Origin: Alphaproteobacteria bacterium
GTDB lineage: Bacteria > Pseudomonadota > Alphaproteobacteria > UBA11222
DNA length: 64,000 nucleotides
Direction: 5' to 3'
NCBI GenBank assembly: GCA_038318895.1
Contig: JBBQCS010000001.1
Location: forward strand, 9,495-73,494
The notes under the pieces were generated by a model. The model saw nothing but the letters and a program-made list of their open reading frames with translations, was not told where the DNA came from and did not search any database. Positions 13,160-50,793 of this stretch are shown here, one piece after another (position 1 is the stretch's first letter; every line of letters begins with the position of its first letter). Made by a program: the position numbers and the translations under genes.

Positions 13160-13192
13160 GTAAAATAAAGTAATTATGTGCTATAAAGGGCC

Positions 13193-14814: not shown

Positions 14815-14823
14815 GTGCGCGCC

Positions 14824-29273: not shown

Positions 29274-29353
29274 GGTGATCGAATTCCGAGACTTATGATG
29301 TAAATGATAATATTATTACAAGCGTGAGTAATTATATAACCCAATTAGGGCCA

Positions 29354-30358
29354 ATGAGTAACAATCATAAGCCTTTACGACCGCCCGAGCCTACCTGCTG
29401 GGTTGTTACCGATGGCAATGCGGGGATGGAAAATCAGTGCCTGGGTCTGGCTGAAGCGCTGGGGGTCATCGCACAGGTCAAACGCCTTAGACTGCGTGCC
29501 CCGTGGGAGTGGCTGCCACCGCGGCTGGGCAGGCTGGCAAACCCGCTCGCGGGGCTGGATGCGCGCGGCGATATGCTTAATCCTCCCTGGCCGGATTTAT
29601 TGATCGCCACTGGGCGGCGAACTGTTGCCGTCAGCGCGATGATCAAGCGGCTGAACAGCAGGACCGTGACCGTGCAAATCCAGAACCCGCATTTTCCAGT
29701 GTCAGCCTTTGATCTGGTGGTGACGCCCGCGCATGACCGCCTGAGCGGCGCGAACGTGATCACGACGGCGGGTGCGCTGCACCGGGTTACGCGGGTGCGC
29801 CTGGATATGGCGGCGCAGGAATTTCGCAGCGCTCTGGCGCATCTGCCGCGGCCGTTGATTGCCGTGCTGATTGGCGGCGCCAACAAGGCGTACCGGATGA
29901 ATCCGCAAATCATTGCAAGATTTGCCGATAGCCTGCGTGATCTGGCAGCGGAAACCGGGTGCAGTTTTGCCGTCACGCCGTCACGCCGCACAGGAGATGA
30001 CAATATAGCCGCGTTGCGCAAGGGGCTGGCCGGGACGCCGCATACGCTTTGGGAGGGGGAGGGCGCCAATCCCTATTTCGGCTATCTGGGGTTGGCCGAC
30101 GCGGTGATTGTCACGTCGGACTCGGTCAATATGGTGAGCGAGGCTTGCGCATCCCAAAAACCGGTTTATGTATACAATCTTCCGGGCGGGTCGGCTAAAT
30201 TTAACGCCTTTCATACGGCAATGCGTGAAAGCGGCGCCGTGCGGCCCTTCATTCCGGGGCAGACAACGCGGCTTGAATCATGGACGCCGCCTGCGATTGA
30301 TGATACGGCCACGGTGGCCAGGGCGGTCAAACGCCTGCTTATTATTCGAAACAACTGA
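29354..30358 (+). CDS. ELM1/GtrOC1-family (DUF1022, mitochondrial-fission-ELM1-like) putative GT-B glycosyltransferase
   Basis: CWVVTDGNAGMENQCLGLAEALG is the characteristic N-terminal block of this family as I recall it; about 334 aa. The start is uncertain (GTG at 29324 or ATG at 29354). Confidence 0.55.
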   Translation: MSNNHKPLRPPEPTCWVVTDGNAGMENQCLGLAEALGVIAQVKRLRLRAPWEWLPPRLGRLANPLAGLDARGDMLNPPWPDLLIATGRRTVAVSAMIKRLNSRTVTVQIQNPHFPVSAFDLVVTPAHDRLSGANVITTAGALHRVTRVRLDMAAQEFRSALAHLPRPLIAVLIGGANKAYRMNPQIIARFADSLRDLAAETGCSFAVTPSRRTGDDNIAALRKGLAGTPHTLWEGEGANPYFGYLGLADAVIVTSDSVNMVSEACASQKPVYVYNLPGGSAKFNAFHTAMRESGAVRPFIPGQTTRLESWTPPAIDDTATVARAVKRLLIIRNN

Positions 30359-30368
30359 CGGATACGGC

Positions 30369-30992
30369 ATGCCGGTGCTTGATATAGCGGCTCTGCAGAT
30401 AGCCCCTTTGCAACATGATCCGTTTGATTATGTGCTGGTGCCCGGTTTTGTGAACGCGGCGGCGCTGGCGGATATCAACAGGGATTTTCCGGCGGTTCCC
30501 GGACCCGGCTCGTACCCCCCGGCGCGTCTGGATATTCGCGGGCGGTTTGGCACGTTGCTGGACGAACTGGATGGTGTGGAATTTCAGACGGCCATCGCGG
30601 AGAAATTTGGCGTCGATCTTTCCGGCTATCCCACCATGTTTACCGTGCGCGGGTTTTGCCGCTTGTCCGATGGCAAAATACACAATGACAGCGAAACCAA
30701 AATTATTACCGTACTGCTCTATCTGAACCCGCCATGGGAAGCCGGGGCGGGCCGTCTGCGATTATTGCGCGGCCCGGATGATCTGAACGATATGGCAGCG
30801 GAAGTGCCGCCCGATGGCGGCAGTCTGCTGGTGTTCCGCCGCGCTGCAAATAGCTGGCACGGGCATGAACCCTATGAAGGGCAGCGCCGCGCCATCCAGA
30901 TGAACTGGGTGCGTGATGCGGGTGTTGTTCGGCGCGAACAGTTGCGGCACCGTATATCGGCGGCGGCCAAACGCCTCGTTCCATTTGTGTGA
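30369..30992 (+). CDS. 2OG-Fe(II) oxygenase (prolyl-4-hydroxylase-like)
   Basis: HxD..H facial triad in the P4Hc-like arrangement (HNDSETKIITVLLYLNPPWEAGAGRLRLL ... SWHGH). The ATG at 30369 lies 10 nt after the upstream stop. Confidence 0.65.
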   Translation: MPVLDIAALQIAPLQHDPFDYVLVPGFVNAAALADINRDFPAVPGPGSYPPARLDIRGRFGTLLDELDGVEFQTAIAEKFGVDLSGYPTMFTVRGFCRLSDGKIHNDSETKIITVLLYLNPPWEAGAGRLRLLRGPDDLNDMAAEVPPDGGSLLVFRRAANSWHGHEPYEGQRRAIQMNWVRDAGVVRREQLRHRISAAAKRLVPFV

Positions 30993-30998
30993 GTGCAG

Positions 30999-32972
30999 AT
31001 GGCGCTGAACCTTGAAACTTTCTCTAACGCCGATATGAAAAGCGGCTGGCGGCCTGGCAATAATGCGGGCGGCCACTCGCTGTTCAAGGCGCTGGGTCAT
31101 CCGATGGCGGCGCGCCGCGGGCGGGCATTGTTTGACGCATGCCTGCAAAATGGCCCTATCGCGATTTACGATCCGCGCGGGGTCGCGGCGGCGTTCGATG
31201 CGCTGTTCGGAATTTCGCGTTGTGAGATTGAAAATATTTATGTGCAGCGTGTAGAAGATCAGGATACGGATATTTTAGGGAAATCCGCCAGATTGCTGAC
31301 GGAATTGCCGCAATCGAAGGCCAGGACACTGCTGGTCCTGTCGTTTGATGCGGCGCGCCTCACGGGACACTTGCAACCGTTGCTGCCGGCCGGCATGACT
31401 GTACGTTCACTGGACGAGATGCGCATTGACGCAGAGATGTTGACCAACACCGGCAATTATACTGACCCGCTGAATTTCGCGACGAATTTTGCGTTGTTCC
31501 GGGATGTGGCGGGCAGGGATGCACAGGGCGGGCTGCACACCACCATTACGACCGCAAATTACTGGGGCATGCAGGGGGCGGAAAACCCCGGACTGTGGCT
31601 ATGCCTGTTCGATGCGAATGGAAATGTGCTGGCGGAGTGGCATGAGCCGTTGCCGCAGGCAGGCGCGTTGATCCGAATTGACAGCCGTGAGGTGCGCGCG
31701 CGTTTTGGCCTAGGGGATTTTTGCGGATCGTTGTTCATGCATGCGCTGCGCGTGGTGAAACATGACATCGTCAAATATGCGCTGGATATTCATGGGGAAG
31801 ACGGGGCCGCGCTTTCGTGCAGTCATGACGCCAATGCGTGGCCAGCAGATTTTTATGCGGGGATGCCTGCGGCACAGTCCGATGAGCGCGTGATCCTGCA
31901 TATTCAGAACAGTCACCCGACACCTATCCCTGCAGGCATTATCGGGCTTGGCATTATGGGCGGGCGATCGGTCAACAGACTGGAGATCGAAATCGCGCCG
32001 TTCGCCACTTACGCACTGGACGTGGCGCAGCTATTGCCGCAGGCGCGTTGGCCCGATCAGGTCGAAATTCATGCCGGACGCTATTTCGTCCGTCCACGCT
32101 ATGAAACCGTGCGGGGCGACGGACGCAGGCGGATTGCCCACGCCAACGTCGAACGCACCGATTTGCAGTCTGATCCGCGTATTCCACAGCTGTCCAAAAG
32201 CATGGGCAAGGCCTATCTTATGCCGCTGCCGGTGCCGCCATTGAAAGAGTTTTCCTCGTTGATGCTGCCAACGCCCATGGCGGCCGGTCAGCGGGAATTG
32301 CCCGTGCGGGCGGAACTTTATGATGCGAACGGTGACAAGGTTGCAGAACATTTCATGGGGCGTCTGCAGCGGCGCGACAGTGTTCCACTGAGCATTGACA
32401 GCTGGTTGAGACAATCGGGTGCGACGCTTGCATCCGGGTCCGGGCATATCGAGTTTCTGTATGATTTTCGCGATGGCGGCGAGGCGGATGGCTGGCTGCA
32501 TGCGCTGGGGAAATATACGCTGCGTTCGAGCGGCCATCAGGCGGAAACAATTTTCGGCGCACATATTTATAACGTGCCAGTGATATATAAGGACGAGCCG
32601 CAATCCTACACTGATACCCCGCCGGGGTTGTCGACCCGGCTGTTTCTGCGGCTGGGGCAAAATCTTGGAATAAAAATGGATGCGCTGTGCCATCTGATTT
32701 ATCCGGCGTCACTTCCCTGGCATAAAAAATCCAGTACACAGATCATTCTGCATGATGGCGATGGTCAGGTCGTGGCGCAAAAACAGGTTGCCATTAAGTG
32801 CAGTGGCAGCCTGTTCTGGCGCTATTCGGAAATGTTTGACGCAGGAGATCGCAAGGCGGCGGGTCCAGGCGCCTATGTCATCGTGCGCGACGCCACCTGC
32901 CGTCTGTTTGGCTTTCACGGGCTTATGCATGGAACCACCAGTTTCAGCCTGGATCACATGTTCGGATTTTAG
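30999..32972 (+). CDS. Hypothetical 657-aa cytoplasmic protein with an internal tandem repeat, family unknown
   Basis: The ATG is 6 nt after the oxygenase stop, so translationally coupled. There are no TM helices or signal peptide and no motif I recognise. The repeat blocks LFDANGNVLAEW..IRIDS and LYDANGDKVAEH..LSIDS indicate a roughly 230-aa duplication. Confidence 0.5.
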   Translation: MALNLETFSNADMKSGWRPGNNAGGHSLFKALGHPMAARRGRALFDACLQNGPIAIYDPRGVAAAFDALFGISRCEIENIYVQRVEDQDTDILGKSARLLTELPQSKARTLLVLSFDAARLTGHLQPLLPAGMTVRSLDEMRIDAEMLTNTGNYTDPLNFATNFALFRDVAGRDAQGGLHTTITTANYWGMQGAENPGLWLCLFDANGNVLAEWHEPLPQAGALIRIDSREVRARFGLGDFCGSLFMHALRVVKHDIVKYALDIHGEDGAALSCSHDANAWPADFYAGMPAAQSDERVILHIQNSHPTPIPAGIIGLGIMGGRSVNRLEIEIAPFATYALDVAQLLPQARWPDQVEIHAGRYFVRPRYETVRGDGRRRIAHANVERTDLQSDPRIPQLSKSMGKAYLMPLPVPPLKEFSSLMLPTPMAAGQRELPVRAELYDANGDKVAEHFMGRLQRRDSVPLSIDSWLRQSGATLASGSGHIEFLYDFRDGGEADGWLHALGKYTLRSSGHQAETIFGAHIYNVPVIYKDEPQSYTDTPPGLSTRLFLRLGQNLGIKMDALCHLIYPASLPWHKKSSTQIILHDGDGQVVAQKQVAIKCSGSLFWRYSEMFDAGDRKAAGPGAYVIVRDATCRLFGFHGLMHGTTSFSLDHMFGF

Positions 32973-37560: not shown

Positions 37561-37680
37561 CGTGATGTCTCCCTGGAACCCACCAGTCTACGCCAGTTTC
37601 CGGTCTAGTTGGGTTGGGACTATAGTCATTATTTTGTCATAAAGCGATTCATATGTTCGGTAGAAAACAGAATTTTCGCG

Positions 37681-38577
37681 TCAGCGAATGGCCCCCTGAC
37701 GATACAGGCGATATAATAGCTGGGGTGCGGCCAATATGGGGTGGCGGCGCTGCCAGGGGCGTAAGGCCAGGGCGTAACCTGAATGCCGCTCCACCTTCCA
37801 CAGCAGGTATTCCACACCACCTTCAAAGGTGAACGCCCCTTTGCAGAGGCGCTGGACGGACAGAATTTTACCGGCATAGCGCCTCAGCGCCCAAATGCCG
37901 CGTACCTGGTCTGACAGGCGCGGGAATTCTAATTCAAGCGCATTAAAAATGCTGTCATAATAGACAGGATCATTGTCATAAATAAGGTGCGGCCGGTTGC
38001 CGCGTTCCACCCGCAATTCTGCACCATAGGTGAGGGCGAAAAGCTGCGTCCAGAATACCGATGATGTGGTGGTCACAGGGTTACATTTAATCGCCCAACC
38101 GCATGCGGTGCGTGCAGCCTGGATCAACGCCGCAATCAGCCGTTTTTTTGCCGTATCGTCGGCGGCGTATAATAAGGATGAAGGCTGCGTGAAACGCGCC
38201 CACATGGTGGTGTCCAGTGCGTCCTGACGCACCCGCCGGGTGAACTGGTCCAGCGAAATTACAGTCACTTTCGCGGCTACCGCTTCGGCCGCGTCGCCCA
38301 GACGCATAAATGACACATCGGGTGGCAGCAGCCGGTTCATCAGGGAGCGGAATATTGATCCATGATAGTCGCGATACCGGTCCACCAATACATAAAAATC
38401 CAGGATGCCTCCGGGTTGATCACTGCGGCGGCAGGAGCCATAGAACAGGATGGCCTGTACGCTATTCCCATGGGCGGCCAGGATGGCGTCCGCTACTGTT
38501 TGGGCGGCGATACTGGGGGGCTGCGCCAGGGTGGATTCGATCAGCATTTTCAGGGCGTGGTCCGCGGCGCCGTTCAT
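37681..38577 (-). CDS. Nucleotidyltransferase-fold protein resembling Tam41/Mmp37 (mitochondrial-type CDP-diacylglycerol synthase family)
   Basis: NTase-like hG[GS]..Dh.h pattern (ILFYGSCRRSDQPGGILDFYVLVD). Downstream blocks (DYHGSIFRSLMNRL; KVTVISLDQF..TMWARFTQPSSLLY) resemble Tam41 as I recall it. The ATG overlaps the upstream kinase stop (ATGA). The family assignment is unverified. Confidence 0.4.
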   Translation of the reverse strand: MNGAADHALKMLIESTLAQPPSIAAQTVADAILAAHGNSVQAILFYGSCRRSDQPGGILDFYVLVDRYRDYHGSIFRSLMNRLLPPDVSFMRLGDAAEAVAAKVTVISLDQFTRRVRQDALDTTMWARFTQPSSLLYAADDTAKKRLIAALIQAARTACGWAIKCNPVTTTSSVFWTQLFALTYGAELRVERGNRPHLIYDNDPVYYDSIFNALELEFPRLSDQVRGIWALRRYAGKILSVQRLCKGAFTFEGGVEYLLWKVERHSGYALALRPWQRRHPILAAPQLLYRLYRQGAIR

Positions 38578-39521
38578 GGATGCACGAAATCCACTGTGCG
38601 GCGCGCGGAAAGCTCGATCAATCCGGAAGGTCCGGGATCAAACAACTCACCATCAACAGTAAAACGTGATGTCAGGCGCAGCGTCAGACGATCAGCGCTG
38701 CCACTACGGTATCCGGCGGCTTCCATCCATGGCCGGGGGCGTCCGCGCAGCACGGGCAACAGGGCCGCGGCCAGGCTTTTGGGCGGACCATTAATAGCCG
38801 TATAGCGGACGGCGCCGCCTTGTGGTCCCCAGAACGGGTTAAGCCCCAGGATGATCCGCTGCAAACTTGTCGCCAGCATAATAAACTGTTCACCTTCACA
38901 TATCTTGCCGCCATCGGCGGTCAGGACCATCGGCGTGCTGTCCCCCGCAGGGCCGCGTATGTTGCGCACAAGCATGGAAGCAATCGTCCATGCGACCGCC
39001 AGTCCGTGATACAGACCCAGCGCATTGGCTTCAGTTTGCGCCAGTTCGGTACCCGCCGAAAAGGCCCCTGCGCCAAAAAACAATCCGCAGATGGGCGCTC
39101 CGGGGCAATCCTTGCGGCTAATTTCCAATATGGGGCGGTGGACCCTCTTGCGGTCCAGCTCACCTTTCCGGGCGGCGTCCAGCACCTGCTGCAGCCCTGC
39201 GGGCCCGTGGCGCGCCGAGCCGACATCATAGGCGGCAAGATTGGTTTTGCCGCCTGGAATGATCGTCAGGGCCGGCCGCCATTCCGGATCAACCCGCCAC
39301 AACCCCGTAAGCACGTCGCGCACCGTGCCGTCACCGCCATTGATGGCGATGACATTCACGTCCTGCTGTTTGAAGCGGGTCAGGACGGTTAACAAATCGG
39401 TCTGTGTTTCGGGTTCGGCAAAGCCGGCCAGATGTGCGCACGCCGCGACATCGCGCAGCGTTGCGGGGCCGTGCAGGTTACGGTGGCTTTTCGGGTTGCT
39501 GATGATGGCCAGCCGGTTCAA
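38574..39521 (-). CDS. DAGK-catalytic-domain lipid kinase (YegS / sphingosine-ceramide-diacylglycerol kinase family)
   Basis: NGGDGTV motif. The likely TTG start at 39521 overlaps the TGA of the upstream gene (TTGA). The ORF track extends to 39617 but would then overlap the upstream CDS by 100 nt. Confidence 0.6.
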   Translation of the reverse strand: MNRLAIISNPKSHRNLHGPATLRDVAACAHLAGFAEPETQTDLLTVLTRFKQQDVNVIAINGGDGTVRDVLTGLWRVDPEWRPALTIIPGGKTNLAAYDVGSARHGPAGLQQVLDAARKGELDRKRVHRPILEISRKDCPGAPICGLFFGAGAFSAGTELAQTEANALGLYHGLAVAWTIASMLVRNIRGPAGDSTPMVLTADGGKICEGEQFIMLATSLQRIILGLNPFWGPQGGAVRYTAINGPPKSLAAALLPVLRGRPRPWMEAAGYRSGSADRLTLRLTSRFTVDGELFDPGPSGLIELSARRTVDFVHP

Positions 39522-40678
39522 GTCGCCAGCCAGGAGCGAATGGGTGCGCGGCGCAGTTTGCAGGCGACCGCCTGGGCAATCTGCACGAAATGGACGCCAA
39601 TACAGGCCAGCGTCCATACCGCGACAATAATCATGCCGATGTCCGGCCGGCCCAGCGTTGCGCCCGCCATGAGGATAACAAGATTGGGGTTGCGCCGCGC
39701 GTTTATTAGGCGAAAGCGGCTGTCAAAGGGCCGCCAGACATGCAGGGTGACGCCGAAAAACAGCTTGAAGGCGCCCTCTTGCAGGCGCTGAAATACATAG
39801 CCGCCGATCACGATGGCGGCAATGATTTCGCCCTGCCACAGGCTGCCCCCTGCACTGCTGATGCCAACAATCCACGCCCAATACCAGAATGGAGGATGAA
39901 CCAGATCAATGCCATGATCGAATATGTTGCCGAAGGCGCTGGAATTGACCGTCACCCGCGCCAGTTTGCCGTCCACCGTATCCAGAAATGTCATGCCCCA
40001 GGCCGCCACCAGGCCCCACCCGAACAGGCCGCCAGCGAACAGGAAATACGCCATTACCGTCAGAACGGCGCTGGCGGATGTTACCATATTGGGCGTAATG
40101 CCGGTTGCGGCGCAGGCGCGTGTGACATGATAGGCGGGCCACGGCCAGACATATTTTGTCACGATATCGGTAACGCCTTTATAGACGGCCCCAAAAAGAT
40201 GGCGTTCTATCTGGCCCTTTGTCGCAGCGGTTATGGGCATGACAAAGGCGGAAATGCGCTTTTTCACCTCATGGCTATAGTCCTCGGCCTCCGCCAGGGA
40301 CAGCGGCGTTGCGATGACGCCTTCGGGCAGGCCAGATGGAGCAAGCGGTAGATTTTGCTGTATCAGTTCAGCTATTGTCGGCGCGCTGTCGGCGGTGACA
40401 TGTGCCGCCACCACCTGACCAGAGGCGGGATCAAGCAGGTATTTCCCCGGGCTTGCAATGAGTTTGCGCAACAAATTCTCTTCGATGAGAAAACCTGCAT
40501 GGATCAGAACAACGAATGGCGCCCGTGCGGCCGAATCGGGCCAGGGGGCAATATCGGCTATGCCAAAGCTGTGCAGCGTCCGGGCAAGGCGGGTCGCCCC
40601 GTCCAGCCCCCAGACAGGTACGGGAGAATTGCCGATCAAACGGATCGCAGGATTTTGCACAGGGTCCGGGGCACGCAT
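39518..40678 (-). CDS. CDP-alcohol phosphatidyltransferase-family enzyme with a roughly 160-aa N-terminal soluble domain
   Basis: Complete CAP motif D-x2-D-G-x2-A-R-x8-G-x3-D-x3-D (LDTVDGKLARVTVNSSAFGNIFDHGID); about 6 TM helices in the C-terminal part. The N-domain has a weak NTP-transferase-like G-rich start (GNSPVPVWGLDGATRL). Confidence 0.75.
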   Translation of the reverse strand: MRAPDPVQNPAIRLIGNSPVPVWGLDGATRLARTLHSFGIADIAPWPDSAARAPFVVLIHAGFLIEENLLRKLIASPGKYLLDPASGQVVAAHVTADSAPTIAELIQQNLPLAPSGLPEGVIATPLSLAEAEDYSHEVKKRISAFVMPITAATKGQIERHLFGAVYKGVTDIVTKYVWPWPAYHVTRACAATGITPNMVTSASAVLTVMAYFLFAGGLFGWGLVAAWGMTFLDTVDGKLARVTVNSSAFGNIFDHGIDLVHPPFWYWAWIVGISSAGGSLWQGEIIAAIVIGGYVFQRLQEGAFKLFFGVTLHVWRPFDSRFRLINARRNPNLVILMAGATLGRPDIGMIIVAVWTLACIGVHFVQIAQAVACKLRRAPIRSWLAT

Positions 40679-40791
40679 CAGGCTGACGGCTTTCTACCAT
40701 TGGGGTGAAACCCCACTTATACTAATGGTGTGGAAAGAAAGCCAGTTGAAGCCGTATGATAGGCCGCTAATGCGATGCGTTTAGGAATTGT

Positions 40792-41601
40792 TTGACTATG
40801 GATATGAACTCTGACGAGAGGGTGGTTGCGTCTGACGCATCGTTGATTCGAAGCCCAACCTGTCCGGCCTGCGATGCGGCGGAGCGCAGACCGTATTACC
40901 GGCATGAGACGTGGGAGCTTTTTTCCTGCGAAGTGTGCCGGTTGATTTATCTTGATCCGATGCCGGGGCCAGCCACGCTGGCGACGATCTATCATGATGC
41001 GTATAACGGCGCGCAAACCGGCTACTTCACCAAAACCAGCTCGAAACTGCGCCGCAGTTCGAAGCGGCTGCGAATTATCCGGCGTTTTTCAAAAACCAGC
41101 GGCGGCAATTTTCTGGATGTCGGCTGTAATGGCGGGTTTATGGTAGAGGCCGCGCGCCGCGTCGGCTATACGGCCTGGGGAATCGATCCGGATCTTGTGT
41201 CACTGGAGTACGCGCGCGCACATTTTCCAGACAGTCGCTACTTCCACGGGGTGATTGACGAATTTGATCCCAGGGATAGCGTTGGCGCGGCTGTGCGGTT
41301 TGATATGGCCTATTGCTCCGAGGTGATTGAGCATGTGCCGCAGCCACAGGCTTTTCTGCGTGATATAAATCGGCTGCTGAAGCCAGGCGGCGTACTGTAC
41401 CTGACGACGCCGGATATTTCCCATTGGCGGCGGCCGCGCCGGCTGGAGAACTGGGATGGGTTCTGCCCGCCATCCCACTTGTTGTATTTTAGTCCGGAAA
41501 ATCTGATTGCTCTTGCGCGGCGCAGTGGCTTTGAACTGCTAAGCCGCCGTCCCGCATGGAAGCCGGGTGTTAAACTGGTGTTGCAACGGCCTCAACGCTA
41601 A
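40792..41601 (+). CDS. Class I SAM-dependent methyltransferase with an N-terminal CxxC..CxxC zinc ribbon
   Basis: CPACDAAERR..CEVCRL is followed by motif I (FLDVGCNGG) and motif post-I (AWGIDPD). Confidence 0.7.
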   Translation: MTMDMNSDERVVASDASLIRSPTCPACDAAERRPYYRHETWELFSCEVCRLIYLDPMPGPATLATIYHDAYNGAQTGYFTKTSSKLRRSSKRLRIIRRFSKTSGGNFLDVGCNGGFMVEAARRVGYTAWGIDPDLVSLEYARAHFPDSRYFHGVIDEFDPRDSVGAAVRFDMAYCSEVIEHVPQPQAFLRDINRLLKPGGVLYLTTPDISHWRRPRRLENWDGFCPPSHLLYFSPENLIALARRSGFELLSRRPAWKPGVKLVLQRPQR

Positions 41602-42424
41602 ACGCTTCTGCACATGTAAGCCAGCATGCCCCGCCGCCCGGCCGGCAATGCGGCGCTATGGCGCGCAATAGTTGAGACAAAAACTCCCACCCGTCTGCGT
41701 CCTGAACGAGATGATGGGTCAATAGACCGGTTGGCTCTTGCGGATCAAAGCCCCGCGGCAGAGGTTTCCCCAATACGAGTGTTCCTTTTGGTATTTGCGG
41801 GTGCAGGCGGCGTATGCGCAGCAGCGTGGTCAATTCCTCCAGCACTGTGTCGGCAGGGCGCAGGCACCGCCCGGTATGCCAGTCAATTGCGTCTATGTGG
41901 CTGTTGGTTTGTACCAGGCCAGGGACTGGCGTCCGATTTGGCGCCGGACGAAACGCCGACACACCATGATAGCCGATCCGCGGCAAATGAACGGCAAGAT
42001 CTTCATCCAGCCGATTCCATGGTGGCACAAATACGGGAAACAGCTTGCTGCCAAACATGTCCCGCAATAGCGACAGTCCCTCAGTGACTTCCGCGCGCAT
42101 TACCGCATTGTCCCGATGCGCGCCAAACTCAGCCCGCTTCCCGGTCCGCGGAGCATGGTTGATATGGGCATACCCATGCACAATAGGGGTGATGTTGTGG
42201 GCCTGTCCTATCATCTCCGGCAACGATGCCTCGGCCCGGCGCGGGACGACGGCCAGCGCCAGCGGCGCGGCAAACTTTTCGGTCAGTTCCAGCAATTGCG
42301 TCAGCGCTGCACTTCCGGTGGCCGCATCATCATCGCGCCACCACAGGCTGGCCGTGCGCCCCGCCTGCGCCCATGCACATAATTCCGCATCCAGTGCCTT
42401 CCAGGCATTTGCACTCTCAGGCAT
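41570..42424 (-). CDS. Polysaccharide deacetylase (CE4)-like protein, divergent
   Basis: WWRDDDA (TFDDG-like), HGYAH (HxxxH) and FVPPWNRL (RxPxG-like) blocks. The start overlaps the upstream GT stop by 8 nt. Confidence 0.45.
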   Translation of the reverse strand: MPESANAWKALDAELCAWAQAGRTASLWWRDDDAATGSAALTQLLELTEKFAAPLALAVVPRRAEASLPEMIGQAHNITPIVHGYAHINHAPRTGKRAEFGAHRDNAVMRAEVTEGLSLLRDMFGSKLFPVFVPPWNRLDEDLAVHLPRIGYHGVSAFRPAPNRTPVPGLVQTNSHIDAIDWHTGRCLRPADTVLEELTTLLRIRRLHPQIPKGTLVLGKPLPRGFDPQEPTGLLTHHLVQDADGWEFLSQLLRAIAPHCRPGGGACWLTCAEAFSVEAVATPV

Positions 42425-43613
42425 TCAGTTTCTCCTGAATGAAACGGGCCGTTACTGCCCCGCCATTCATGTCCGGCAGATACCGGGCGGTATTGTTTTG
42501 CAACATCGCCTGATCAATTGCAGCGGCCAGCGAGGCCGGACCTAAATCCGATTCCGGCACCACCACGGCAAGGCCTGCGCGCGTCAGAGCCTGCGCCCGC
42601 AATGTCTGCTCCCGCTCCCGCGCGGCGCCAAATGGGACAATCACTGCGGGCGTTTCAGAAATAGTCCTAGCCTGCAAAATATCCATTACTGTATTATAGC
42701 CCCCCTGGCTAACCGAACAGGCGCAGTTGAATAGCATTTGCGGAAAATCCGGCCGCGCTGTTTCAACCACTAGGCCTTCCGGCGCTTTGTCCTGCAGCGC
42801 CTGCCGTTGACCATCCGGTGCATTGCGACCGATTAATAACCGCCATAATTTTCCCCTCGCTTGTGTTGAAAGCGCGCGCGCCTGCAGGGCTGCTGTCATT
42901 AATGCTTCACCCACCGCGCCCCCTCCGGCAGATATAATAACTTCATCTTTACCAACAATGCCTGTAGGCGGGTGTTGTGCGTAAGGCGTGTCCGCCGTCA
43001 CATAGCCTGTATAGACTATTTTGCCGTTCAGTTCGGCTGCCGCCGGATAGCTTTCTTCCAGGCGAATGAAATTCGCGTCCCCGTGCACCAGTATATGATC
43101 AAAATAATTCCGTGCGTGGGTGATGGCTTCGTCTGTCCGCCCGGGCTTGTCAGAAGGAACCAGAATGTCACGCACAGAGCACGCGACGAGCGGCGCGGGT
43201 CTGCGCTTGCGGGCTGCTTCCAGCAACGGCAGTAATTCGAAACGGAACTGTCGCCGCCCGAATGGAAACATTTCGATCAGCAGCATATCGGGCGCCAGAT
43301 TGGCAAATGCCTGTAGCAACACAGTTTGGCGGTGGTGGCGCCAGGCGTCGTCGATGGGTTTGCCTTCCTGATTCAGCAATTTCGAAAACTCGGCGTCGGC
43401 GGTGCGAACCGGGGCAAGCTGGATTATATTCGCGCCATGCGCGTCACTATGGGGATATGGCATACCACCGCTGACAATGGTTACCGCCATCCCCGCATCC
43501 TGCAGGCGCCGGGTCAATCGCAGGGCGCGCTCCAGATGACCAATGCCGAGCAGATGCTGCACATAAAACATAATCTGTTTAGGGACGAATATATCATCCA
43601 TGTTTGCTCTCAA
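42417..43613 (-). CDS. GT-B glycosyltransferase (GT1/GT28-like, COG4671 type)
   Basis: The N-terminal FYVQHLLGIGHLERALRLTRRL matches the GT28/GT1 N-domain G-loop + His pattern. It is a paralogue of the 46604..47863 gene. The start may be at 43601. Confidence 0.55.
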   Translation of the reverse strand: MRANMDDIFVPKQIMFYVQHLLGIGHLERALRLTRRLQDAGMAVTIVSGGMPYPHSDAHGANIIQLAPVRTADAEFSKLLNQEGKPIDDAWRHHRQTVLLQAFANLAPDMLLIEMFPFGRRQFRFELLPLLEAARKRRPAPLVACSVRDILVPSDKPGRTDEAITHARNYFDHILVHGDANFIRLEESYPAAAELNGKIVYTGYVTADTPYAQHPPTGIVGKDEVIISAGGGAVGEALMTAALQARALSTQARGKLWRLLIGRNAPDGQRQALQDKAPEGLVVETARPDFPQMLFNCACSVSQGGYNTVMDILQARTISETPAVIVPFGAAREREQTLRAQALTRAGLAVVVPESDLGPASLAAAIDQAMLQNNTARYLPDMNGGAVTARFIQEKLNA

Positions 43614-44190
43614 ACGCCATATTCAGTGCAACCGGAACAACAGTCCCCCCCGCACTTGCATCGAACAGATGGACGGCGTTCCAGGCCAGTTCAACTGGCG
43701 GATTTCCCAGCATATCCCAGTCATAGGCCAATGCGAGCGCCGCGCGGATGACGCCCTTATGGGTCATCGCCGTAACCGGCCGGCCGGGATTGGCGATGTC
43801 TTTGAACCAGGACTTTAGCCGCGCCCGTACATCGGCGGGGGATTCGCCGCCGGGAGGGCGAAAATGCAAGCCGCGGTCTTCGTTTTCCTGCATTGCGCCT
43901 CCGTAACGCGCGCGCAGATCACTCAGGGTTTCACCTTCCCATTCCCCCCAATGCATTTCTATAAGCCTCGGCTCTATCGCGAACGCACCGGGGCCTAGAA
44001 TACGCGCCGATTCAACCGCGCGGCGAAGCGGACTGACATGCCAATGGCTGTTGCGCAAGGCCGCGGGAACCCCAAGCCCCTGTAGTTCGCGGCGGCCCTC
44101 CTGGCTAAGCGATATATCAGCGTGTCCCTGCATACGGCCATCCCTATTCCATTGGGTCGGGCCATGACGGATGAAAGCGACAAAGGTCAT
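43594..44190 (-). CDS. Histidine phosphatase (phosphoglycerate-mutase family)
   Basis: RHG motif FIRHGPTQWN plus downstream His. The ATG at 44190 is 7 nt after the upstream GT4 stop. Confidence 0.7.
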   Translation of the reverse strand: MTFVAFIRHGPTQWNRDGRMQGHADISLSQEGRRELQGLGVPAALRNSHWHVSPLRRAVESARILGPGAFAIEPRLIEMHWGEWEGETLSDLRARYGGAMQENEDRGLHFRPPGGESPADVRARLKSWFKDIANPGRPVTAMTHKGVIRAALALAYDWDMLGNPPVELAWNAVHLFDASAGGTVVPVALNMAFESKHG

Positions 44191-44197
44191 GGAAAAA

Positions 44198-45358
44198 TCA
44201 CGACCGGCGCCACAGCCGCGCCCAACGGCTGCGCGGGCGGGCCTGTTGGCGAAGTCTGACGGCAACCAGTCCTGCGTTCAAAATAATTGCAGCCTTTTCC
44301 ATGCTGCGCATACTGTGGACAAACCGTTTTCCGGTTTCGCCCATGGTGTGACGGACCCCGGCGTCGGAGATCAGAAAGTCGATAACCCCCGCAAAGGCCT
44401 CCGCATCACCCTCCGGGGTAAGAAAGCCGGTTTGTCCATCCAGCATTACATCCGGAACGCCGCGCACCCTGCCAGCGACAACCGGCAGGCCGGACGCCTG
44501 CGCTTCCAGCAGCGCCATGCCATAGGCTTCGCCCGCAGCCGGCCATACATATATGTCGGCAGCCGCATATATGCCGGGCATCTCAATCTTCTGGCGCGCG
44601 CCCCTGAACTGAAGCCGATCCTGTCCGAGCGGGGCAAGCGCGGCCTCTACTTCCGCGCGCGCGGGACCATCCCCCACAATGGTCAGGCGCCAATCCTGGT
44701 GTTTCAGGAGTGCCAGACAATCCGCCAGCCTGCGGTAACTTTCCGCTTTATCCCCTGGCCGCATCATACCTACTGCCAGCAACCGGAGCGGCTCTTCGGG
44801 AAGCGGATCATTGCGCGGCTCCGCGGCATAAGGTCTGGGGTCGAGAAAGGGCGGCAGGTCACGATGAATTTGCACCGGATCAAGAACTGCTTCCAGACCC
44901 TCCGCATCAATGCTGGTCATGGAAAAAATCAGATCAGCAGTTTTGATCGCCAGTTCGGAGCCCCTGTGTCCTATGGCCCATGGGCCTTCTGCCCGGCTTG
45001 CGGCATAAGAGGCTTCCGCCACCACATAGGGAATGCCCAGCGCCCTGGCCACAGCGGGCCCGATCCAGTCGGGCGACTTGTAATAGACGTGATAGCTGAA
45101 CCATAATTCCGGCTGCTGATCTTTCGCGCGCGCGCGATAGCGTTCAATAAGCCGCGCGGCCTCGCGTTCCGCGCCTTTTAAGAGAGTTTCCTGCTGCGCA
45201 GGGTCACCTATGCCATCATAGGCCCGGAACGACGAAGCGACTTCCACTTCATGGCCACCCATGCCCAGCGCGGTGATGAGCAGCCCCGCCATTTCCCTGT
45301 CGCCCGAAGGGGTCAGATCGTCGGGCGCTTTCATCGGTGCATAAAATGCTATGCGCAT
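44198..45358 (-). CDS. Glycosyltransferase family 4 (GT-B, retaining)
   Basis: E-x7-E motif (EAYGMALLEAQASGLPVV) and Glycos_transf_1 C-domain. Confidence 0.8.
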   Translation of the reverse strand: MRIAFYAPMKAPDDLTPSGDREMAGLLITALGMGGHEVEVASSFRAYDGIGDPAQQETLLKGAEREAARLIERYRARAKDQQPELWFSYHVYYKSPDWIGPAVARALGIPYVVAEASYAASRAEGPWAIGHRGSELAIKTADLIFSMTSIDAEGLEAVLDPVQIHRDLPPFLDPRPYAAEPRNDPLPEEPLRLLAVGMMRPGDKAESYRRLADCLALLKHQDWRLTIVGDGPARAEVEAALAPLGQDRLQFRGARQKIEMPGIYAAADIYVWPAAGEAYGMALLEAQASGLPVVAGRVRGVPDVMLDGQTGFLTPEGDAEAFAGVIDFLISDAGVRHTMGETGKRFVHSMRSMEKAAIILNAGLVAVRLRQQARPRSRWARLWRRS

Positions 45359-46611
45359 ACGGGCTCACCATTGCTGGCGGTAAAACGCCTTACTAACTCA
45401 TCAATTGTATGTTGCATCTGAAAGCGGGTTTCCAGCCGTATCCGGCCCTGTCTGCCCATTTGCGCGCGGCGTTCCGGATCCCGGATCAGTTGTTCCAGCG
45501 CAATGGCCAACGCCTGCGCGTCATCTGGCGGACATAACAGTCCCGTCTCGCCGTCGATGATAAATTCAGGAATAGCCGACAGGTTACTGCTGACACAGGC
45601 CAGGCCCTGACTTTGCGCCTCCAGCAGGACGTTAGGGATGCCGTCGCGATCGCCGTCCGGACCGACCCGGCAGGCAAGCGCGAACAGATCGCTCTCGCGC
45701 AGGGCGCTGATGACCGCATCCTGATCAACGGGGCCACCCCAGATGATGGACGCGCCAAGCCCAAGATTTTGCGCCTGCTGTTTCAGTGCCGTCAGCTCCG
45801 GCCCGCCGCCAAGATGCTGAAACCGCCAATGCAGTTCTCGGGGCAACAGCGCCAGGGCCTGCAATAAAGTGTCGAAGCCTTTTTTCACGACCGCCCGCCC
45901 GACACTGATCAGTCGTACTGCAGATTCCGGTGTACTGCCGTCGCGGCTGAAATGCGCAGCAGGTGGGGGGGGAAAGCGCGCGAGGTCAAGCCCGTGGTAT
46001 ACCAGTTCGACGTTAGCTGTTCGTTGCGGTGTGCGCAGTTCATTGAGATAGCCGGTCCCTGCGGCTGTACAACTGACGCCCCAGGCGCAACTGCCAAGTT
46101 TTTCACGCAATTCCCAGGCCGGCGTCGTCCAGATATCCTTTGCATGGGCTGAAAAGCTCCAGGGAAGTCCGCGCATTATCGCCGCGTAGCGGGTGACCGA
46201 TCCCGGTGTATGCAGAAAATGCGCATGCAGATGGCGGACTTTCCCGTCCAGTTCACTGGCCAGCACCAGCGCCTGGGCAAAACGGCGGCCGCGATTGGGT
46301 GTCAGATCGCGGCGCAGATCGCGCAGCCAGATCCGCAGCGCCCGGGAATAGCCCGGCAGCCGCCGCGCCGCAAACCAGCCGCGCAGCACCCGCAACGGAT
46401 CATCGCGCAGATATTCCGGCAGGTAATTTACCGGTGCGGTAATATCCCCGTGCATGGAATGGGACCTGGTGTCGGTTGGGTGGCGTAACGAAAAAATCAC
46501 AATTGGCACGCCACGTTGTTCGAGCGCCAGAATTTCCTGGGCAATAAAGGTTTCTGAAAGTCTGGGATACCCCTTCAGCACAAATGCAATCGTGGGGCCG
46601 GCGCTAGGCAT
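45349..46611 (-). CDS. Glycosyltransferase family 4 (WcaL-like)
   Basis: GT4 C-domain (GIPNVLLEAQSQGLACVSS, EFIIDGETGLL); overlaps both neighbours by 8-10 nt. Confidence 0.8.
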   Translation of the reverse strand: MPSAGPTIAFVLKGYPRLSETFIAQEILALEQRGVPIVIFSLRHPTDTRSHSMHGDITAPVNYLPEYLRDDPLRVLRGWFAARRLPGYSRALRIWLRDLRRDLTPNRGRRFAQALVLASELDGKVRHLHAHFLHTPGSVTRYAAIMRGLPWSFSAHAKDIWTTPAWELREKLGSCAWGVSCTAAGTGYLNELRTPQRTANVELVYHGLDLARFPPPPAAHFSRDGSTPESAVRLISVGRAVVKKGFDTLLQALALLPRELHWRFQHLGGGPELTALKQQAQNLGLGASIIWGGPVDQDAVISALRESDLFALACRVGPDGDRDGIPNVLLEAQSQGLACVSSNLSAIPEFIIDGETGLLCPPDDAQALAIALEQLIRDPERRAQMGRQGRIRLETRFQMQHTIDELVRRFTASNGEPVCA

Positions 46612-47863
46612 GGCGGCGTTTATCCGTTGAATGACGCCGAGTGCGTCTGGTTTCCGGTTTAAGCGAAGACGCCGCGATATCCGCCATCCTTGAGAGACCG
46701 TCGTTGATCCCTGTAATGGCGGTCCGAGAGGGTGGCGCCTGATTGGGCAAGGCCAGAAGCGCCGTCAGCATCACCTCGGGGTCTCGCACGCCGGTGCCGT
46801 TATGCGAAGGATCTGCCAGCATGGCAACCAAACCGCGATCGCTTGCGCGCCGGGCGCGGATGGTTTGTTCCAGACGTGGCGCCGAACGCGGCACAATCAG
46901 CGCTGGCTTGTCACGCGCCAAAATCTCGCAAAAAGTATTGTAGCCCCCCATCGCCACAATGGCTGTCGCGCCGGCCTCAAACTGTTCAATATGGCTATCG
47001 AATGTGAGTATTGTGATTGCCGGTAAAAGCACCGCGCGCGCGGTGAAGGCGGCCTGCGCATCCGGGTTCATAAATGGTCCAAGCACGATCAGCGCAGGCA
47101 GGGGCGCGGGGCCCGCGCGCAATGCGCTAAGCTCATACGCCGATAGCACCCAGTCTATCAGTTCTTCGCCATCACCGCCGCCGCCGGTTGTCACTAATAG
47201 ATAAGGGTTTCTGGTGACCTCCGGCCATACCATGGCGGCAGGCGCGGACGGTAGGGGTGTGCACAGGTACCCGGTATAGGTAATCTTGTCGGCCACCATA
47301 GCTGGAATGGAAACGCCGTCCAGGGGGGCATAGATATCCTGCATACCGTATACCCAAATCTCGTCATAAAGATCTCGCAGGGCGGGGAAGGCTTTTTTGC
47401 GTTGCCATTCCGCCGACAGCCTTGCTGGTTCATCCAGAATATCGCGCAGACCAAGCACCAGCTTTGTGCCGCGCGCCTTGAGCATTTCCAGGGTGGACGC
47501 CACCTCTCCGCGTAATCCCAGCGGTTCTTTGTCGACAATAAATAAATCCGGCGCGAAAATATCTGCTGTGTGCTGGATGATCGACTGGCGAAGCGCCAGT
47601 GTTTCAGAAATATCAAGGTGCAGGTTAAGTGACGTATATTCGCCATTGCGCAATTTGATCACACCGGGCACCCGGATAAAATCCACCCTGGCCCGGAAAT
47701 CGAAACTGCCGATAATCGGCGAGCCGGAAAGGATTAACACCGAAAGTTTGGAGTAGTTCTCAACCAGCGCATGGGCAATAGCCCTGCAACGGCGCAAATG
47801 CCCGAGGCCAAATGTGTCGTGACTGTAGATTAAAACCCGTGATCCGGATTTTCGTGCCGGCAT
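46604..47863 (-). CDS. GT-B glycosyltransferase (GT1/GT28-like, COG4671 type), first gene of the operon
   Basis: N-terminal RVLIYSHDTFGLGHLRRCRAIAHAL and C-terminal GGYNT block; paralogous to 42417..43613. Confidence 0.55.
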   Translation of the reverse strand: MPARKSGSRVLIYSHDTFGLGHLRRCRAIAHALVENYSKLSVLILSGSPIIGSFDFRARVDFIRVPGVIKLRNGEYTSLNLHLDISETLALRQSIIQHTADIFAPDLFIVDKEPLGLRGEVASTLEMLKARGTKLVLGLRDILDEPARLSAEWQRKKAFPALRDLYDEIWVYGMQDIYAPLDGVSIPAMVADKITYTGYLCTPLPSAPAAMVWPEVTRNPYLLVTTGGGGDGEELIDWVLSAYELSALRAGPAPLPALIVLGPFMNPDAQAAFTARAVLLPAITILTFDSHIEQFEAGATAIVAMGGYNTFCEILARDKPALIVPRSAPRLEQTIRARRASDRGLVAMLADPSHNGTGVRDPEVMLTALLALPNQAPPSRTAITGINDGLSRMADIAASSLKPETRRTRRHSTDKRRHA

Positions 47864-47988: not shown

Positions 47989-50793
47989 ATGAATGTGACA
48001 GAGCAGCTTAAATCATTCTACTATGATAAAATTATCCTTTTGCTAAAGAGTTCCCATCACGCAATGGATCCCAGTATTTTCAAATATATCTGGCGCTATA
48101 GTCGGCAAAGCCAGCTAGTTGTTCTGGCGTTGGTGTTGGGATCATTGCCATTTTATTTCCTGATGCTTGATCTGCCGCGCGCCATTGTCAACGGCCCGAT
48201 CCAGGGCAAGGGCTTCGAAACCTCTGATGCGACTGCGACTTTCCTGAGCTTTTCATTTGCTATGCCCGGTTTCCTGCAATCGCTTTTCGGAACAGCAAAA
48301 TCGACCATTTTTGAGGGGTTTGAACTTGCTCGCGAGCCTTATCTTCTGGCGCTGAGCTGTTCTTTGTTGCTGCTGGTCGCTGTCAACGGGATATTCAAAC
48401 TTCAGATCAATACCCTGAAGGGGCGTATGGGCGAACGCGTGCTGCGGCGTTTGCGCTATCAATTGTTTGACCGGATATTACGGTTCCCGACTGCCCATGT
48501 GCGCAAGGTACGCCAGGCCGAAGTGGCGTCGATGATCAAGGACGAGGTCGAACCGCTGGGTGGATTTATCGGTGATGCGTTTGTGCAACCGGCATTTCTG
48601 GGTGGCCAGGCGATCACGGCCCTGCTGTTCATCATGATCCAGAGTTTCTGGTTGGGGCTTGTGGCGGGTGCTGTCGTCCTGGCGCAGGCCTTTATCATTC
48701 CCAAGCTGCGCCGCCGTATTCTGGAGCTTGGCCGTCAGCGGCAACTGGTGGCGCGCCATCTTGCCGGGCGTGTTGGCGAGGTCGTCGAGGGGGCGCTGGA
48801 AATTCATGCGCACGACACCTCGCATTATGAACGGGCCGAAATCACCGGCCGTCTGGGACAGATTTTCCGGCTGCGCTTTGAAATTTACCGCCGCAAGTTT
48901 CAGGTCAAGTTTCTCAATAATACGCTGGCCCAGGTTACGCCATTCATCTTTTATTCTGTGGGCGGATATTTTGCGATCCGGGGCAGAATGGATATCGGCC
49001 AGCTTGTTGCGGCGCTGGTTGCCTACAAGGAGCTTCCAAGTCCGGTCAAGGAGCTTATCGACTGGGATCAGCAGCGTCTTGATGTGCAGATCAAATATGA
49101 AAGTATTATCACTCAATTCAACCCTGACGGCATGATCGCGCCGGAACTACAGGACCCGGACGCCGATGACGATGCGCCGCTAACGGGAATGTTGAACGCT
49201 TCACGCATCACGCTTGAAGATGACGCCGGGGTAAAATTGCTGGATGGCGTGTCATTTACATTTGACGTCCGGTCCCATGTGGCGATTACAGGGCCGGTAG
49301 GCGGCGGACAGGATTATCTGGGGCTTGTTCTGGCGCGGCTGATATTCCCCAATAGCGGAAAACTAAGCATTGGCGGGCGTGACACGGCGTTATTGCCAGA
49401 GGCGGTAACAGGACGGCGTATTTCCTATGCGGGCAGTGATTCAATCCTGTTCCCACGTAGCGTACGCGAAAACATGTTGTACGGGCTAATGCATCGCCCG
49501 CTGACGCCGCCGGTAATTATTGAGGAGGATCCACGCCAAGAGGCCATGGAACGTAGTGAAATCCGGCGTTCGGGAAACTCCCGGTTTGATCTGCGCGCCG
49601 ACTGGATTGATTATGCCGCCGCCGGAGCGCAAGGCCCCTATGATATCGATAACCAGATTGCGGCTGCGCTGGATGCTGTCATGATGGAAGAGGATGTCTA
49701 TCAACTTGGTTTGCGCGGCTGCATCAATCCGGAAGATCACCCGTCACTGGCCGAGAACATATTGCAGGCGCGGAAAGCGCTGCTCGAAATGCTCCGGGAT
49801 CCAGAATATGCGGCGCTGGTGGCGCCATTCGATCCCGAACGCTATAACCATAACGCGACATTAAGTGAAAACCTGCTGTTTGGAACTGCTGTTGGCACGG
49901 CCTTTTCTACGGTCAACCTGATTGGAAATACCTATTTTCAGTGGGTGCTGGAGGAATCTGGCCTCACACCTGAATTGCTTCGAATGGGTTTCGCCATTGC
50001 TGAAACCATGGTCGAGCTTTTTGCGGACATTGCGCCGGGGCATCCGTTTTTCGATCAGTTCAGCTTTATCGCTTCCGACGATTTGCCGGACTATCAGGAG
50101 ATCGTGCATCGCGCGGGAAGGATTGCGCTCGAGCAACTTCCAGAGTCAGATCAGCGGCGTCTGGCCGCCCTGACGCTGGATTATGTCGAGGCCCGTCACC
50201 GTCTTGGGCTGATTGACGCCGCTCTGGAGCAGAGGGTGCTGACAGCGCGCCGTCTTTTTGCATCGCGCCTGCCGGCCACCTATCGCGGGGCGATAGAAGT
50301 TTATGACCCTGAAAAATACAATTCAGCCGCGACCCTGCTCGATAATATTCTGTTTGGGCGTGTGGTCTATGGACTGGCGGAAGCGCAATCGCGTATCGGA
50401 GTGTTGATCGGCGAAGTGGTGGGGCAGTTAAATCTGCGCTGGGAAATATTCAAAATAGGCTTGAACTTTAACGTGGGAGGACGCGGACGGTTCCTGAGCA
50501 CCATCCAACGCCAGAAACTCGCGCTCGCCAAGGCAATCCTGAAGCGTCCCGATCTGCTTGTGGTGAATGACGCAATTTCGCTGCTGGACGTGCGAAGTCA
50601 GCAGCAGATCCTGCACAACATCAAAACTTATTGCGATGGGCGGGGAGTTATCTGGATCGGTGGACAACCGAACCTGGGCCGGAATTTTGACCAGGTTTTG
50701 GTGATCGAGGACGGAAAAATTGCCGAGCAGGGCGAATTCGAGCAACTGTCACTGAATGGCAAGTATCTGCCGCAACTGCTCGCCGTTGGGTAA
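47989..50793 (+). CDS. ABC-exporter-like protein: type I TMD fused to a degenerate, insertion-containing nucleotide-binding domain
   Basis: Six N-terminal TM helices with an ABC-exporter-like layout. The NBD motifs are all present but altered: Walker A GPVGGGQDYL (no Lys/Ser), signature LSTIQRQK (for LSGGQ), Walker B LLVVNDA (for hhhhDE), H-loop IGGQP. About 330 aa are inserted between the Q-loop region and the signature. An alternative start is at 48064. Confidence 0.6.
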   Translation: MNVTEQLKSFYYDKIILLLKSSHHAMDPSIFKYIWRYSRQSQLVVLALVLGSLPFYFLMLDLPRAIVNGPIQGKGFETSDATATFLSFSFAMPGFLQSLFGTAKSTIFEGFELAREPYLLALSCSLLLLVAVNGIFKLQINTLKGRMGERVLRRLRYQLFDRILRFPTAHVRKVRQAEVASMIKDEVEPLGGFIGDAFVQPAFLGGQAITALLFIMIQSFWLGLVAGAVVLAQAFIIPKLRRRILELGRQRQLVARHLAGRVGEVVEGALEIHAHDTSHYERAEITGRLGQIFRLRFEIYRRKFQVKFLNNTLAQVTPFIFYSVGGYFAIRGRMDIGQLVAALVAYKELPSPVKELIDWDQQRLDVQIKYESIITQFNPDGMIAPELQDPDADDDAPLTGMLNASRITLEDDAGVKLLDGVSFTFDVRSHVAITGPVGGGQDYLGLVLARLIFPNSGKLSIGGRDTALLPEAVTGRRISYAGSDSILFPRSVRENMLYGLMHRPLTPPVIIEEDPRQEAMERSEIRRSGNSRFDLRADWIDYAAAGAQGPYDIDNQIAAALDAVMMEEDVYQLGLRGCINPEDHPSLAENILQARKALLEMLRDPEYAALVAPFDPERYNHNATLSENLLFGTAVGTAFSTVNLIGNTYFQWVLEESGLTPELLRMGFAIAETMVELFADIAPGHPFFDQFSFIASDDLPDYQEIVHRAGRIALEQLPESDQRRLAALTLDYVEARHRLGLIDAALEQRVLTARRLFASRLPATYRGAIEVYDPEKYNSAATLLDNILFGRVVYGLAEAQSRIGVLIGEVVGQLNLRWEIFKIGLNFNVGGRGRFLSTIQRQKLALAKAILKRPDLLVVNDAISLLDVRSQQQILHNIKTYCDGRGVIWIGGQPNLGRNFDQVLVIEDGKIAEQGEFEQLSLNGKYLPQLLAVG

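Follow-up and report, generated by a model that had tools for sequence, protein, structure and literature searches.

In the 64,000-nucleotide stretch analysed here (hereafter the window; contig JBBQCS010000001.1 of the alphaproteobacterial assembly GCA_038318895.1), three minus-strand genes are probably orthologues of the cpgA, cpgB and cpgC genes of Caulobacter. Their most likely role is to provide ceramide with an anionic phospho-head group, on the cytoplasmic side of the inner membrane. Homologues of all three proteins are present, in the order cpgA-cpgB-cpgC and as one compact unit. They are referred to below as gene 1 (a cytidine diphosphate (CDP)-alcohol phosphotransferase), gene 2 (a lipid kinase) and gene 3 (a protein with the fold of Tam41). 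The initial annotation, made from the sequence alone, had presented the trio as new biochemistry. It falls instead within a known Caulobacter family (PMC9393093, PMC11324152), and for its third member, CpgC (CC_1161), a CDP-diacylglycerol-synthase-like InterPro domain had been noted, and a nucleoside diphosphate (NDP)-ceramide intermediate suggested, by 2024 (PMC11324152).

In Caulobacter, CpgA is PgsA-like, CpgB is a ceramide kinase of the DAGK/LCB5 type and CpgC has no Pfam domain; deletion of cpgC keeps ceramide-1-phosphate and abolishes ceramide phosphoglycerate (CPG), and deletion of cpgA keeps CPG, with loss of the diphosphoglycerate form (CPG2) only (PMC9393093). A further protein, CpgD, makes CDP-glycerate, the presumed donor of CpgA, and CPG is still present after a cpgD deletion that removes CDP-glycerate (PMC12275187). 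CpgD prefers 2-phosphoglycerate (PMC13228409).

Kinship with the Caulobacter genes and distribution of the family

A scan with one genome per species identified a relative of gene 3 (CpgC) in at least 565 species, and the loci of 80 of these were compared using probe proteins; these loci are related to one another and not phylogenetically independent. The trio of a Caulobacteraceae metagenome-assembled genome (L001) shows 49%, 40% and 40% identity to genes 1, 2 and 3, respectively, over their full length. It lies in a sphingolipid cluster comprising an NTP_transferase, a Metallophos protein, the CDP-OH transferase, a fatty-acid hydroxylase, a flippase, an AMP-binding enzyme (acyl-ACP synthetase), an epimerase-type reductase (cerR), ACP, Spt, a 306-aa Pfam-less protein, a DAGK_cat kinase and an LptF/G protein. 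The 306-aa protein matches gene 3 with 40% identity over 278 residues (E 2e-56), and the kinase, located by spt, matches gene 2 with 40% identity over 339 residues (E 4e-72). Moreover, the genes at the cpgA, cpgB and cpgC positions of three Caulobacter genomes (L053, L063 and L071) are 47-48%, 34-37% and 39-40% identical to those of the window. The order in these genomes is Metallophos, cpgA, cpgB, cpgC, spt, acp, cerR, aasR, flippase, which is the one expected if CC_1158-CC_1166 are consecutive and have the roles given in PMC11324152. Sequence identity together with this synteny, established within the genus and not with the C. crescentus sequences themselves, indicates that the window trio is probably orthologous to cpgA-cpgB-cpgC (CC_1159-1161 = CCNA_01217-01219).

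The arrangement is well conserved. The three genes are colinear and compact in 50 of the 52 loci that have both cpgA and cpgB, and ceramide-synthesis genes lie within 10 kb in 62 of the 80 loci (42 of the 51 with full 10-kb flanks). In 21 of the 80 loci cpgC, mostly with cpgB, occurs without cpgA. A CpgD-like NTP_transferase is encoded within 10 kb in 38/59 loci with cpgA versus 0/21 without it (Fisher p 5.6e-8, a count over related loci rather than over independent events), leaving 21 of the 59 CpgA-bearing loci with no CpgD-like gene within that distance. The cpgB-cpgC pair behaves as a core, and cpgA travels with the cpgD-like gene. Both the absence of cpgA from 21 of 80 loci and the occurrence of CpgD-like genes only in loci with cpgA fit the division of labour described in the literature.

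Several lineages depart from the Caulobacter arrangement. In Acetobacteraceae such as Acidisoma, Acidocella, Komagataeibacter, Acetobacter and Endobacter, the cpgB-cpgC pair adjoins spt and cpgA is absent, and a mono-phosphoglycerate lipid would be the predicted end product. In Burkholderiales and some Gammaproteobacteria (L045, L047, L048, L060, L066, L070, L078 and L081), cpgA and cpgC are immediate neighbours without an intervening cpgB; cerR is frequently close by, and no spt was found within 10 kb. The full cpgA-cpgB-cpgC set, at 35-42% identity, is present in Nitrospira and other Nitrospirales (L051, L058, L062, L067, L069 and L072-L074), where genes for a fatty-acid hydroxylase and a CpgD-like protein accompany it and spt is missing within 10 kb; the cited papers on these lipids do not name this phylum among their organisms. 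Finally, five sphingolipid clusters that a search for Spt brought up (L086 and L091-L094) harbor a shorter CDP-OH transferase (298-313 aa) devoid of the N-terminal domain described below, together with glycosyltransferases, a PIG-L-like gene and an NTP_transf_3 gene, and have neither cpgB nor cpgC, which suggests different head-group chemistries on bacterial ceramide.

Organization of the three-gene unit

Both junctions are four-base stop/start overlaps. Between genes 1 and 2 the overlap is TTGA (39521..39518; the minus strand reads GCG ACT TGA ACC at 39529..39515), the TTG start of gene 2 (39521-39519) overlapping the TGA stop of gene 1 (39520-39518). Between genes 2 and 3 it is ATGA (38577..38574; CAT CCA TGA ACG at 38582..38571), the ATG start of gene 3 (38577-38575) overlapping the TGA stop of gene 2 (38576-38574). 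The longest open reading frame (ORF) of gene 2 starts at an ATG at 39617 (38574-39617, -), and the corresponding 347-aa form of the kinase is ruled out by gene calls and by homologue starts at the TTG. The 315-aa form starting at TTG is called by gene callers on four independent contigs, and the Caulobacter and Azospirillum homologues start with a Met at the equivalent residue, the upstream extension not being conserved; the TTG start is retained because these two lines of evidence agree. The data support a single translationally coupled unit, and the minus-strand sequence bears out the two overlaps and the gene 2 coordinates of the initial annotation.

The Tam41-fold protein

Gene 3 has no match to any Pfam or NCBIfam model. 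Its product consists of a nucleotidyltransferase (NTase) domain (~residues 1-140), then a domain that is helical or resembles a winged helix, and, at the C terminus, basic/aromatic helices; it carries the motif FYGS (47-48)...D60-F-Y. Among 31 homologues G47, D60, Y62, K103 and D122 are invariant and S48 is nearly so. The NTase motif proposed by the initial annotation therefore holds for its GS and first Asp (D60) and fails at its second Asp, D66, which is variable in these homologues.

The closest structures to gene 3, by a wide margin, are two cytidine triphosphate (CTP):phosphatidate cytidylyltransferases of the Tam41 fold (PDB 7ecd and 6ig2/6ig4), aligned over 215 residues; because the aligned length is this long, both domains are shared. 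Tam41, whose substrate is phosphatidate, is defined by an NTase and a winged-helix domain that jointly form the CTP pocket (PMC7018664), and the same two-domain layout is found in gene 3. In an E. coli strain depleted of cdsA, phospholipid synthesis is restored by yeast Tam41 (PMC7018664, PMC6362211). As modelled, the gene 3/CpgC family clearly has the Tam41 fold, well separated from other nucleotidyltransferases. The likeness is one of fold and does not extend to membership of the Pfam sequence family: identity to Tam41/Mmp37 is only 11-14%, and a family profile searched against PDB sequences retrieved no Tam41 at E 10. This profile also gave matches to CecR and to kanamycin NTase, which were at chance level only and were discarded. 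The suggested Tam41 resemblance is thus upheld by structure comparison and not by profile searches. In addition, Tam41 is not exclusively the mitochondrial enzyme it had been taken for, as a Firmicutes structure exists (7ecd). The substrate of gene 3 is likely ceramide-1-phosphate rather than phosphatidate, and the CpgC step is likely the synthesis of CDP-ceramide.

The lipid kinase

Gene 2 matches Pfam DAGK_cat (6.4e-13) and carries the motif INGGDGT, in agreement with the lipid-kinase motif first recognized in it. The lipid kinases YegS, DgkB and BmrU share the DAGK_cat domain and GGDGT with gene 2, but the kinases at the CpgB position are far closer, with full-length matches at 34-41% identity, whereas the YegS/DgkB equivalogs gave partial, sub-threshold matches (28-34 bits versus cut-offs of 118-385). 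Profiling against YegS, DgkB and ceramide kinase, a check that the initial annotation had proposed, thus favours the CpgB type. These comparisons support a probable assignment of gene 2 as a soluble lipid kinase of the DAGK superfamily, in the bacterial ceramide-kinase clade. The Caulobacter CpgB has been purified as a ceramide kinase (PMC10331486).

The CDP-alcohol phosphotransferase

Gene 1 is a CDP-alcohol phosphotransferase of the AF2299/DIPPS type. It matches Pfam CDP-OH_P_transf (PF01066; 4.7e-8, 34 bits versus a cut-off of 22), and the transferase motif seen in the initial annotation is complete (D233-x2-D236-G237-x2-A240-R241-x8-G250-x3-D254-x3-D258), with all eight positions invariant in 28 homologues. 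A soluble, cytidylyltransferase-like N-terminal domain (~residues 1-165) precedes the transmembrane catalytic domain. This domain had been noted as an unusual one of 160 aa; it is real but not unusual, being present with the same length and coverage in all 120 homologues listed and in AF2299-type proteins.

The AlphaFold2 (AF2) model of gene 1 has a predicted local distance difference test score (pLDDT) of 86. Compared with Foldseek, it matches AF2299 (4o6n/4o6m) of Archaeoglobus fulgidus over the full length (E 3e-11, template-modelling (TM) score 0.62/0.70, ~385 aligned columns) and also IPCT-DIPPS (4mnd) over the full length. Architecture and fold are alike, at an identity of 16-17%; the N-terminal domain gives in addition a faint sequence match to the cytoplasmic domain of AF2299. 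Unlike the AF2299/DIPPS type, this domain has no G-x-G-x-R nucleotide-binding loop recognizable in its sequence, and therefore probably does not itself make the CDP-alcohol. Enzymes of this class can use a soluble CDP-alcohol as donor; DIPPS does so, as has been proposed for CpgA. The acceptor of gene 1 is presumably a membrane lipid.

Proposed pathway

In the pathway that we favour, the CpgB-like kinase would convert ceramide and ATP to ceramide-1-phosphate, as shown for its Caulobacter orthologue. From its fold and from the Caulobacter genetics, the Tam41-fold CpgC-like enzyme would then convert ceramide-1-phosphate and CTP to CDP-ceramide and pyrophosphate, in parallel with the formation of CDP-diacylglycerol from phosphatidate by Tam41. 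CDP-ceramide and glycerate or phosphoglycerate would give ceramide phosphoglycerate via a further, putative transferase. Finally, the CpgA-like transferase may add a further phospho-alcohol to the lipid, which in Caulobacter would be phosphoglycerate from CDP-glycerate; this last step is suggested by the Caulobacter genetics and by the AF2299/DIPPS-type architecture, suited to soluble CDP-alcohol donors. The stop/start overlaps would couple the translation of the three proteins.

The initial annotation had proposed a self-sufficient scheme of kinase, cytidylyltransferase and CDP-alcohol transferase. Its first two steps fit this pathway, whereas the third conflicts with the Caulobacter data, where CPG is still made without cpgA and soluble CDP-glycerate from CpgD is regarded as the donor of CpgA (PMC9393093, PMC12275187). 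As for the CdsA-independent route to a phospholipid that had been envisaged, nothing shows a bypass of CdsA for glycerophospholipids.

Several points weigh against the ceramide pathway. To our knowledge the activity of CpgC has never been assayed, and we know of no enzyme that converts CDP-ceramide to CPG in the absence of CpgA. The Pfam Mmp37 model (PF09139) matches none of the 31 gene 3 family members, even at E 10. In the window and its neighbouring extensions (L087, L088 and L089, ~18 kb), ~82 kb in total, tblastn searches to E 1e-2 identified no spt, acp, cerR, acyl-ACP synthetase (aasR), CpgD-like NTP_transferase or Metallophos gene, so that neither the ceramide-synthesis genes nor CpgD are linked to the operon over this distance, although cpgD may lie elsewhere; bcerS, looked for through Pfam domain lists only, was not found there either. 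A search for the Spt of this organism, using as query that of the nearest spt-linked relative, reached a plateau at 73-77%, and the contigs of P0251 and P0257 belong to other samples. Moreover, the mechanism of CpgC was still called unidentified in the literature of May 2026 (PMC13228409), and the in vitro activity of CpgB on diacylglycerol about equals that on ceramide (PMC10331486); the substrate therefore cannot be told from the kinase fold.

Alternative explanations

The setting of the operon differs from that in Caulobacter, where cpgABC adjoins spt, acp, cerR and aasR as well as the Metallophos gene (CC_1158); in the window it lies instead between a glycosyltransferase cluster and panBC. 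The two closest relatives of the window (L002 and L003, 65-77% protein identity) share this atypical setting, but the nearest outgroup, a Parvibaculum-like locus (L004, 57% identity), has spt directly after cpgC, and the ancestral arrangement was therefore linked. Sphingolipid genes are scattered over several loci in Sphingomonas, Zymomonas and Nitrosomonas (PMC11324152), and nearly all genera with cpgB encode Spt/bCerS/CerR (PMC10331486). For these three reasons the likeliest explanation is that in this lineage the operon became detached from the genes for ceramide synthesis, and that these reside at another place in the genome.

The same facts bear on the idea of a module uncoupled from sphingolipids, in which the kinase would make phosphatidate, the Tam41-fold enzyme a CdsA-independent CDP-diacylglycerol and the AF2299-type transferase an unusual anionic glycerophospholipid. 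The ~82 kb devoid of ceramide-synthesis genes, cpgD and Metallophos, unlike most loci, would suit it, as would the activity of CpgB on diacylglycerol and the strong structural match of gene 3 to an enzyme that uses phosphatidate (PMC7018664). We nevertheless consider it quite unlikely: all three proteins belong to the CpgABC family, sharing 40-49% identity with its members from sphingolipid clusters, and give no hint of forming a divergent subfamily, the closest outgroup has spt adjacent, scattering of these genes is documented in other genera, nearly all genera with cpgB encode ceramide synthesis, and deletion of cpgB in Caulobacter leaves phosphatidate levels unchanged (PMC10331486). Similarly improbable is an extended form of this idea, where in this uncultured alphaproteobacterial lineage a cpgABC module cut loose from sphingolipids would lead from diacylglycerol through phosphatidate and a Tam41-type, CdsA-independent CDP-diacylglycerol to an anionic glycerophospholipid of unusual type, to which the adjacent glycosyltransferases might make further additions. 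At a wider scale, the CpgC family (at least 565 species) may represent the extensive branch, mostly alphaproteobacterial, that the Tam41 fold has in bacteria, with CDP-ceramide, a metabolite not known to have been described, as its product.

The Tam41-fold protein could also make no CDP-lipid and be a transferase of phospho-alcohols or other groups, attaching glycerate or phosphoglycerate directly to ceramide-1-phosphate with an activated, soluble compound as the donor, which would leave the ceramide head-group role of the operon unchanged. LicD and fukutin, which have the NTase fold and transfer phospho-alcohols from CDP-alcohols, are a general precedent. Such an activity would account for the presence of cpgB-cpgC without cpgA in 21 of the 80 loci and for the requirement of only CpgB and CpgC for CPG in Caulobacter, where a second transferase is not known (PMC9393093, PMC11324152). 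It is unlikely, however, given that the two CTP:phosphatidate cytidylyltransferases, and not LicD-type proteins, give the best structural matches, which cover both domains and lead by a wide margin, and that CPG persists after deletion of cpgD, which rules out the known activated glycerate as donor (PMC12275187). A role shared with the adjacent glycosyltransferase cluster and ABC transporter, with a lineage-specific lipid-phosphate anchor, or a glycosylated phospho-lipid or polysaccharide, as the product, appears very unlikely. The cluster genes overlap one another and the succession GT28-like/GT4/GT4/His_Phos_1/GT28-like/DUF2334-like/methyltransferase/cpgABC is kept in L002 and L003 at 65-82% protein identity, but the methyltransferase gene, of opposite orientation, separates the two units, which are therefore transcribed separately, and none of the other 78 loci has these neighbours, whose conservation could reflect the shared ancestry of three close relatives. 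Assembly of an anionic phospho-head group on ceramide thus stays the preferred reading.

Genomic setting of the operon

The coordinates of the operon and its neighbours are given in Table 1. The sole sigma-70-like match in the divergent intergenic region is on the + strand (40731-40760) and no better than chance. Downstream, a weak terminator-like hairpin is present at 37688..37675, and the scan returned 6 terminator-like sites versus 3.6 +/- 2.0 expected from shuffles, which is weak evidence; both the promoter and the terminator scans were at chance level. The cpgC-like gene is followed by panB-panC in the same orientation.

Table 1. Window coordinates of the three-gene unit and of neighbouring features
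Feature	Coordinates	Strand	Location or basis
cpgA-like gene (gene 1), 386 aa	39518..40678	-	ORF map
cpgB-like gene (gene 2), 315 aa from TTG	38574..39521	-	ORF map, gene calls, homologue N-termini
cpgC-like gene (gene 3), 298 aa	37681..38577	-	ORF map
3' gap, 120 bp, probable unit end	37561..37680	-	between cpgC-like stop and panB
Divergent intergenic region, 113 bp, presumed promoter region	40679..40791	.	between cpgA-like start and methyltransferase gene; from gene arrangement only
Methyltransferase gene, oriented opposite to operon	40792-41601	+	ORF map
DUF2334-like, weak	41570-42424	-	glycosyltransferase cluster
GT28-like	42417-43613	-	glycosyltransferase cluster
His_Phos_1 / phosphoglycerate-mutase-family phosphatase	43594-44265	-	glycosyltransferase cluster
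GT4	44198-45358	-	glycosyltransferase cluster
GT4	45349-46611	-	glycosyltransferase cluster
GT28-like	46604-47863	-	glycosyltransferase cluster
ABC transporter, 934 aa, divergent	47989-50793	+	beside glycosyltransferase cluster

The glycosyltransferase cluster (41570-47863, -) is tightly packed and lies directly upstream of the operon. The phosphoglycerate-mutase-family gene that it contains is intriguing given the preference of CpgD for 2-phosphoglycerate (PMC13228409).

The window also starts inside a phoX gene (1-514, +), on which a possible link of the operon to phosphate starvation had been based. It is a 3' fragment comprising the C-terminal ~170 codons, located ~37 kb from the operon, and the lipid product would itself contain phosphate; the proposed link is therefore not sustained. 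On the related contigs L087 and L088, the region upstream of phoX harbors Rieske, GGDEF, purE/purK, gltX, cysS and leuA genes. Other features of the window include a gene strongly matching Pfam Mito_fiss_Elm1 (PF06258, 9.5e-107), another family named for a mitochondrial protein; after this gene come one for a 2OG-Fe(II) oxygenase and a Pfam-less ORF of 659 aa (29324-32972, +). Co-directional genes for a UbiA prenyltransferase, a fatty-acid desaturase-family protein, a PrmA/lysine-methyltransferase-like protein and UbiD (12245-16350, +) form an odd mix for a ubiquinone locus. Finally, the stop of a LonC/LonB-like AAA protease gene (824 aa) overlaps a 238-aa Pfam-less ORF (52793-55980, +).

Significance for the CpgC family

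As the Caulobacter pathway has been described genetically since 2022, the claimed new biochemistry had for the most part been anticipated. The Tam41 fold of the CpgC family makes the CpgC step directly testable, as the conversion of CTP and ceramide-1-phosphate to CDP-ceramide. The family is far wider than first reported, with at least 565 species including Acetobacteraceae, Azospirillaceae, Nevskiaceae, Burkholderiales and Nitrospira. The lineage of the window, whose operon has no ceramide genes linked to it, would be well suited for asking if the module can act on glycerolipids.

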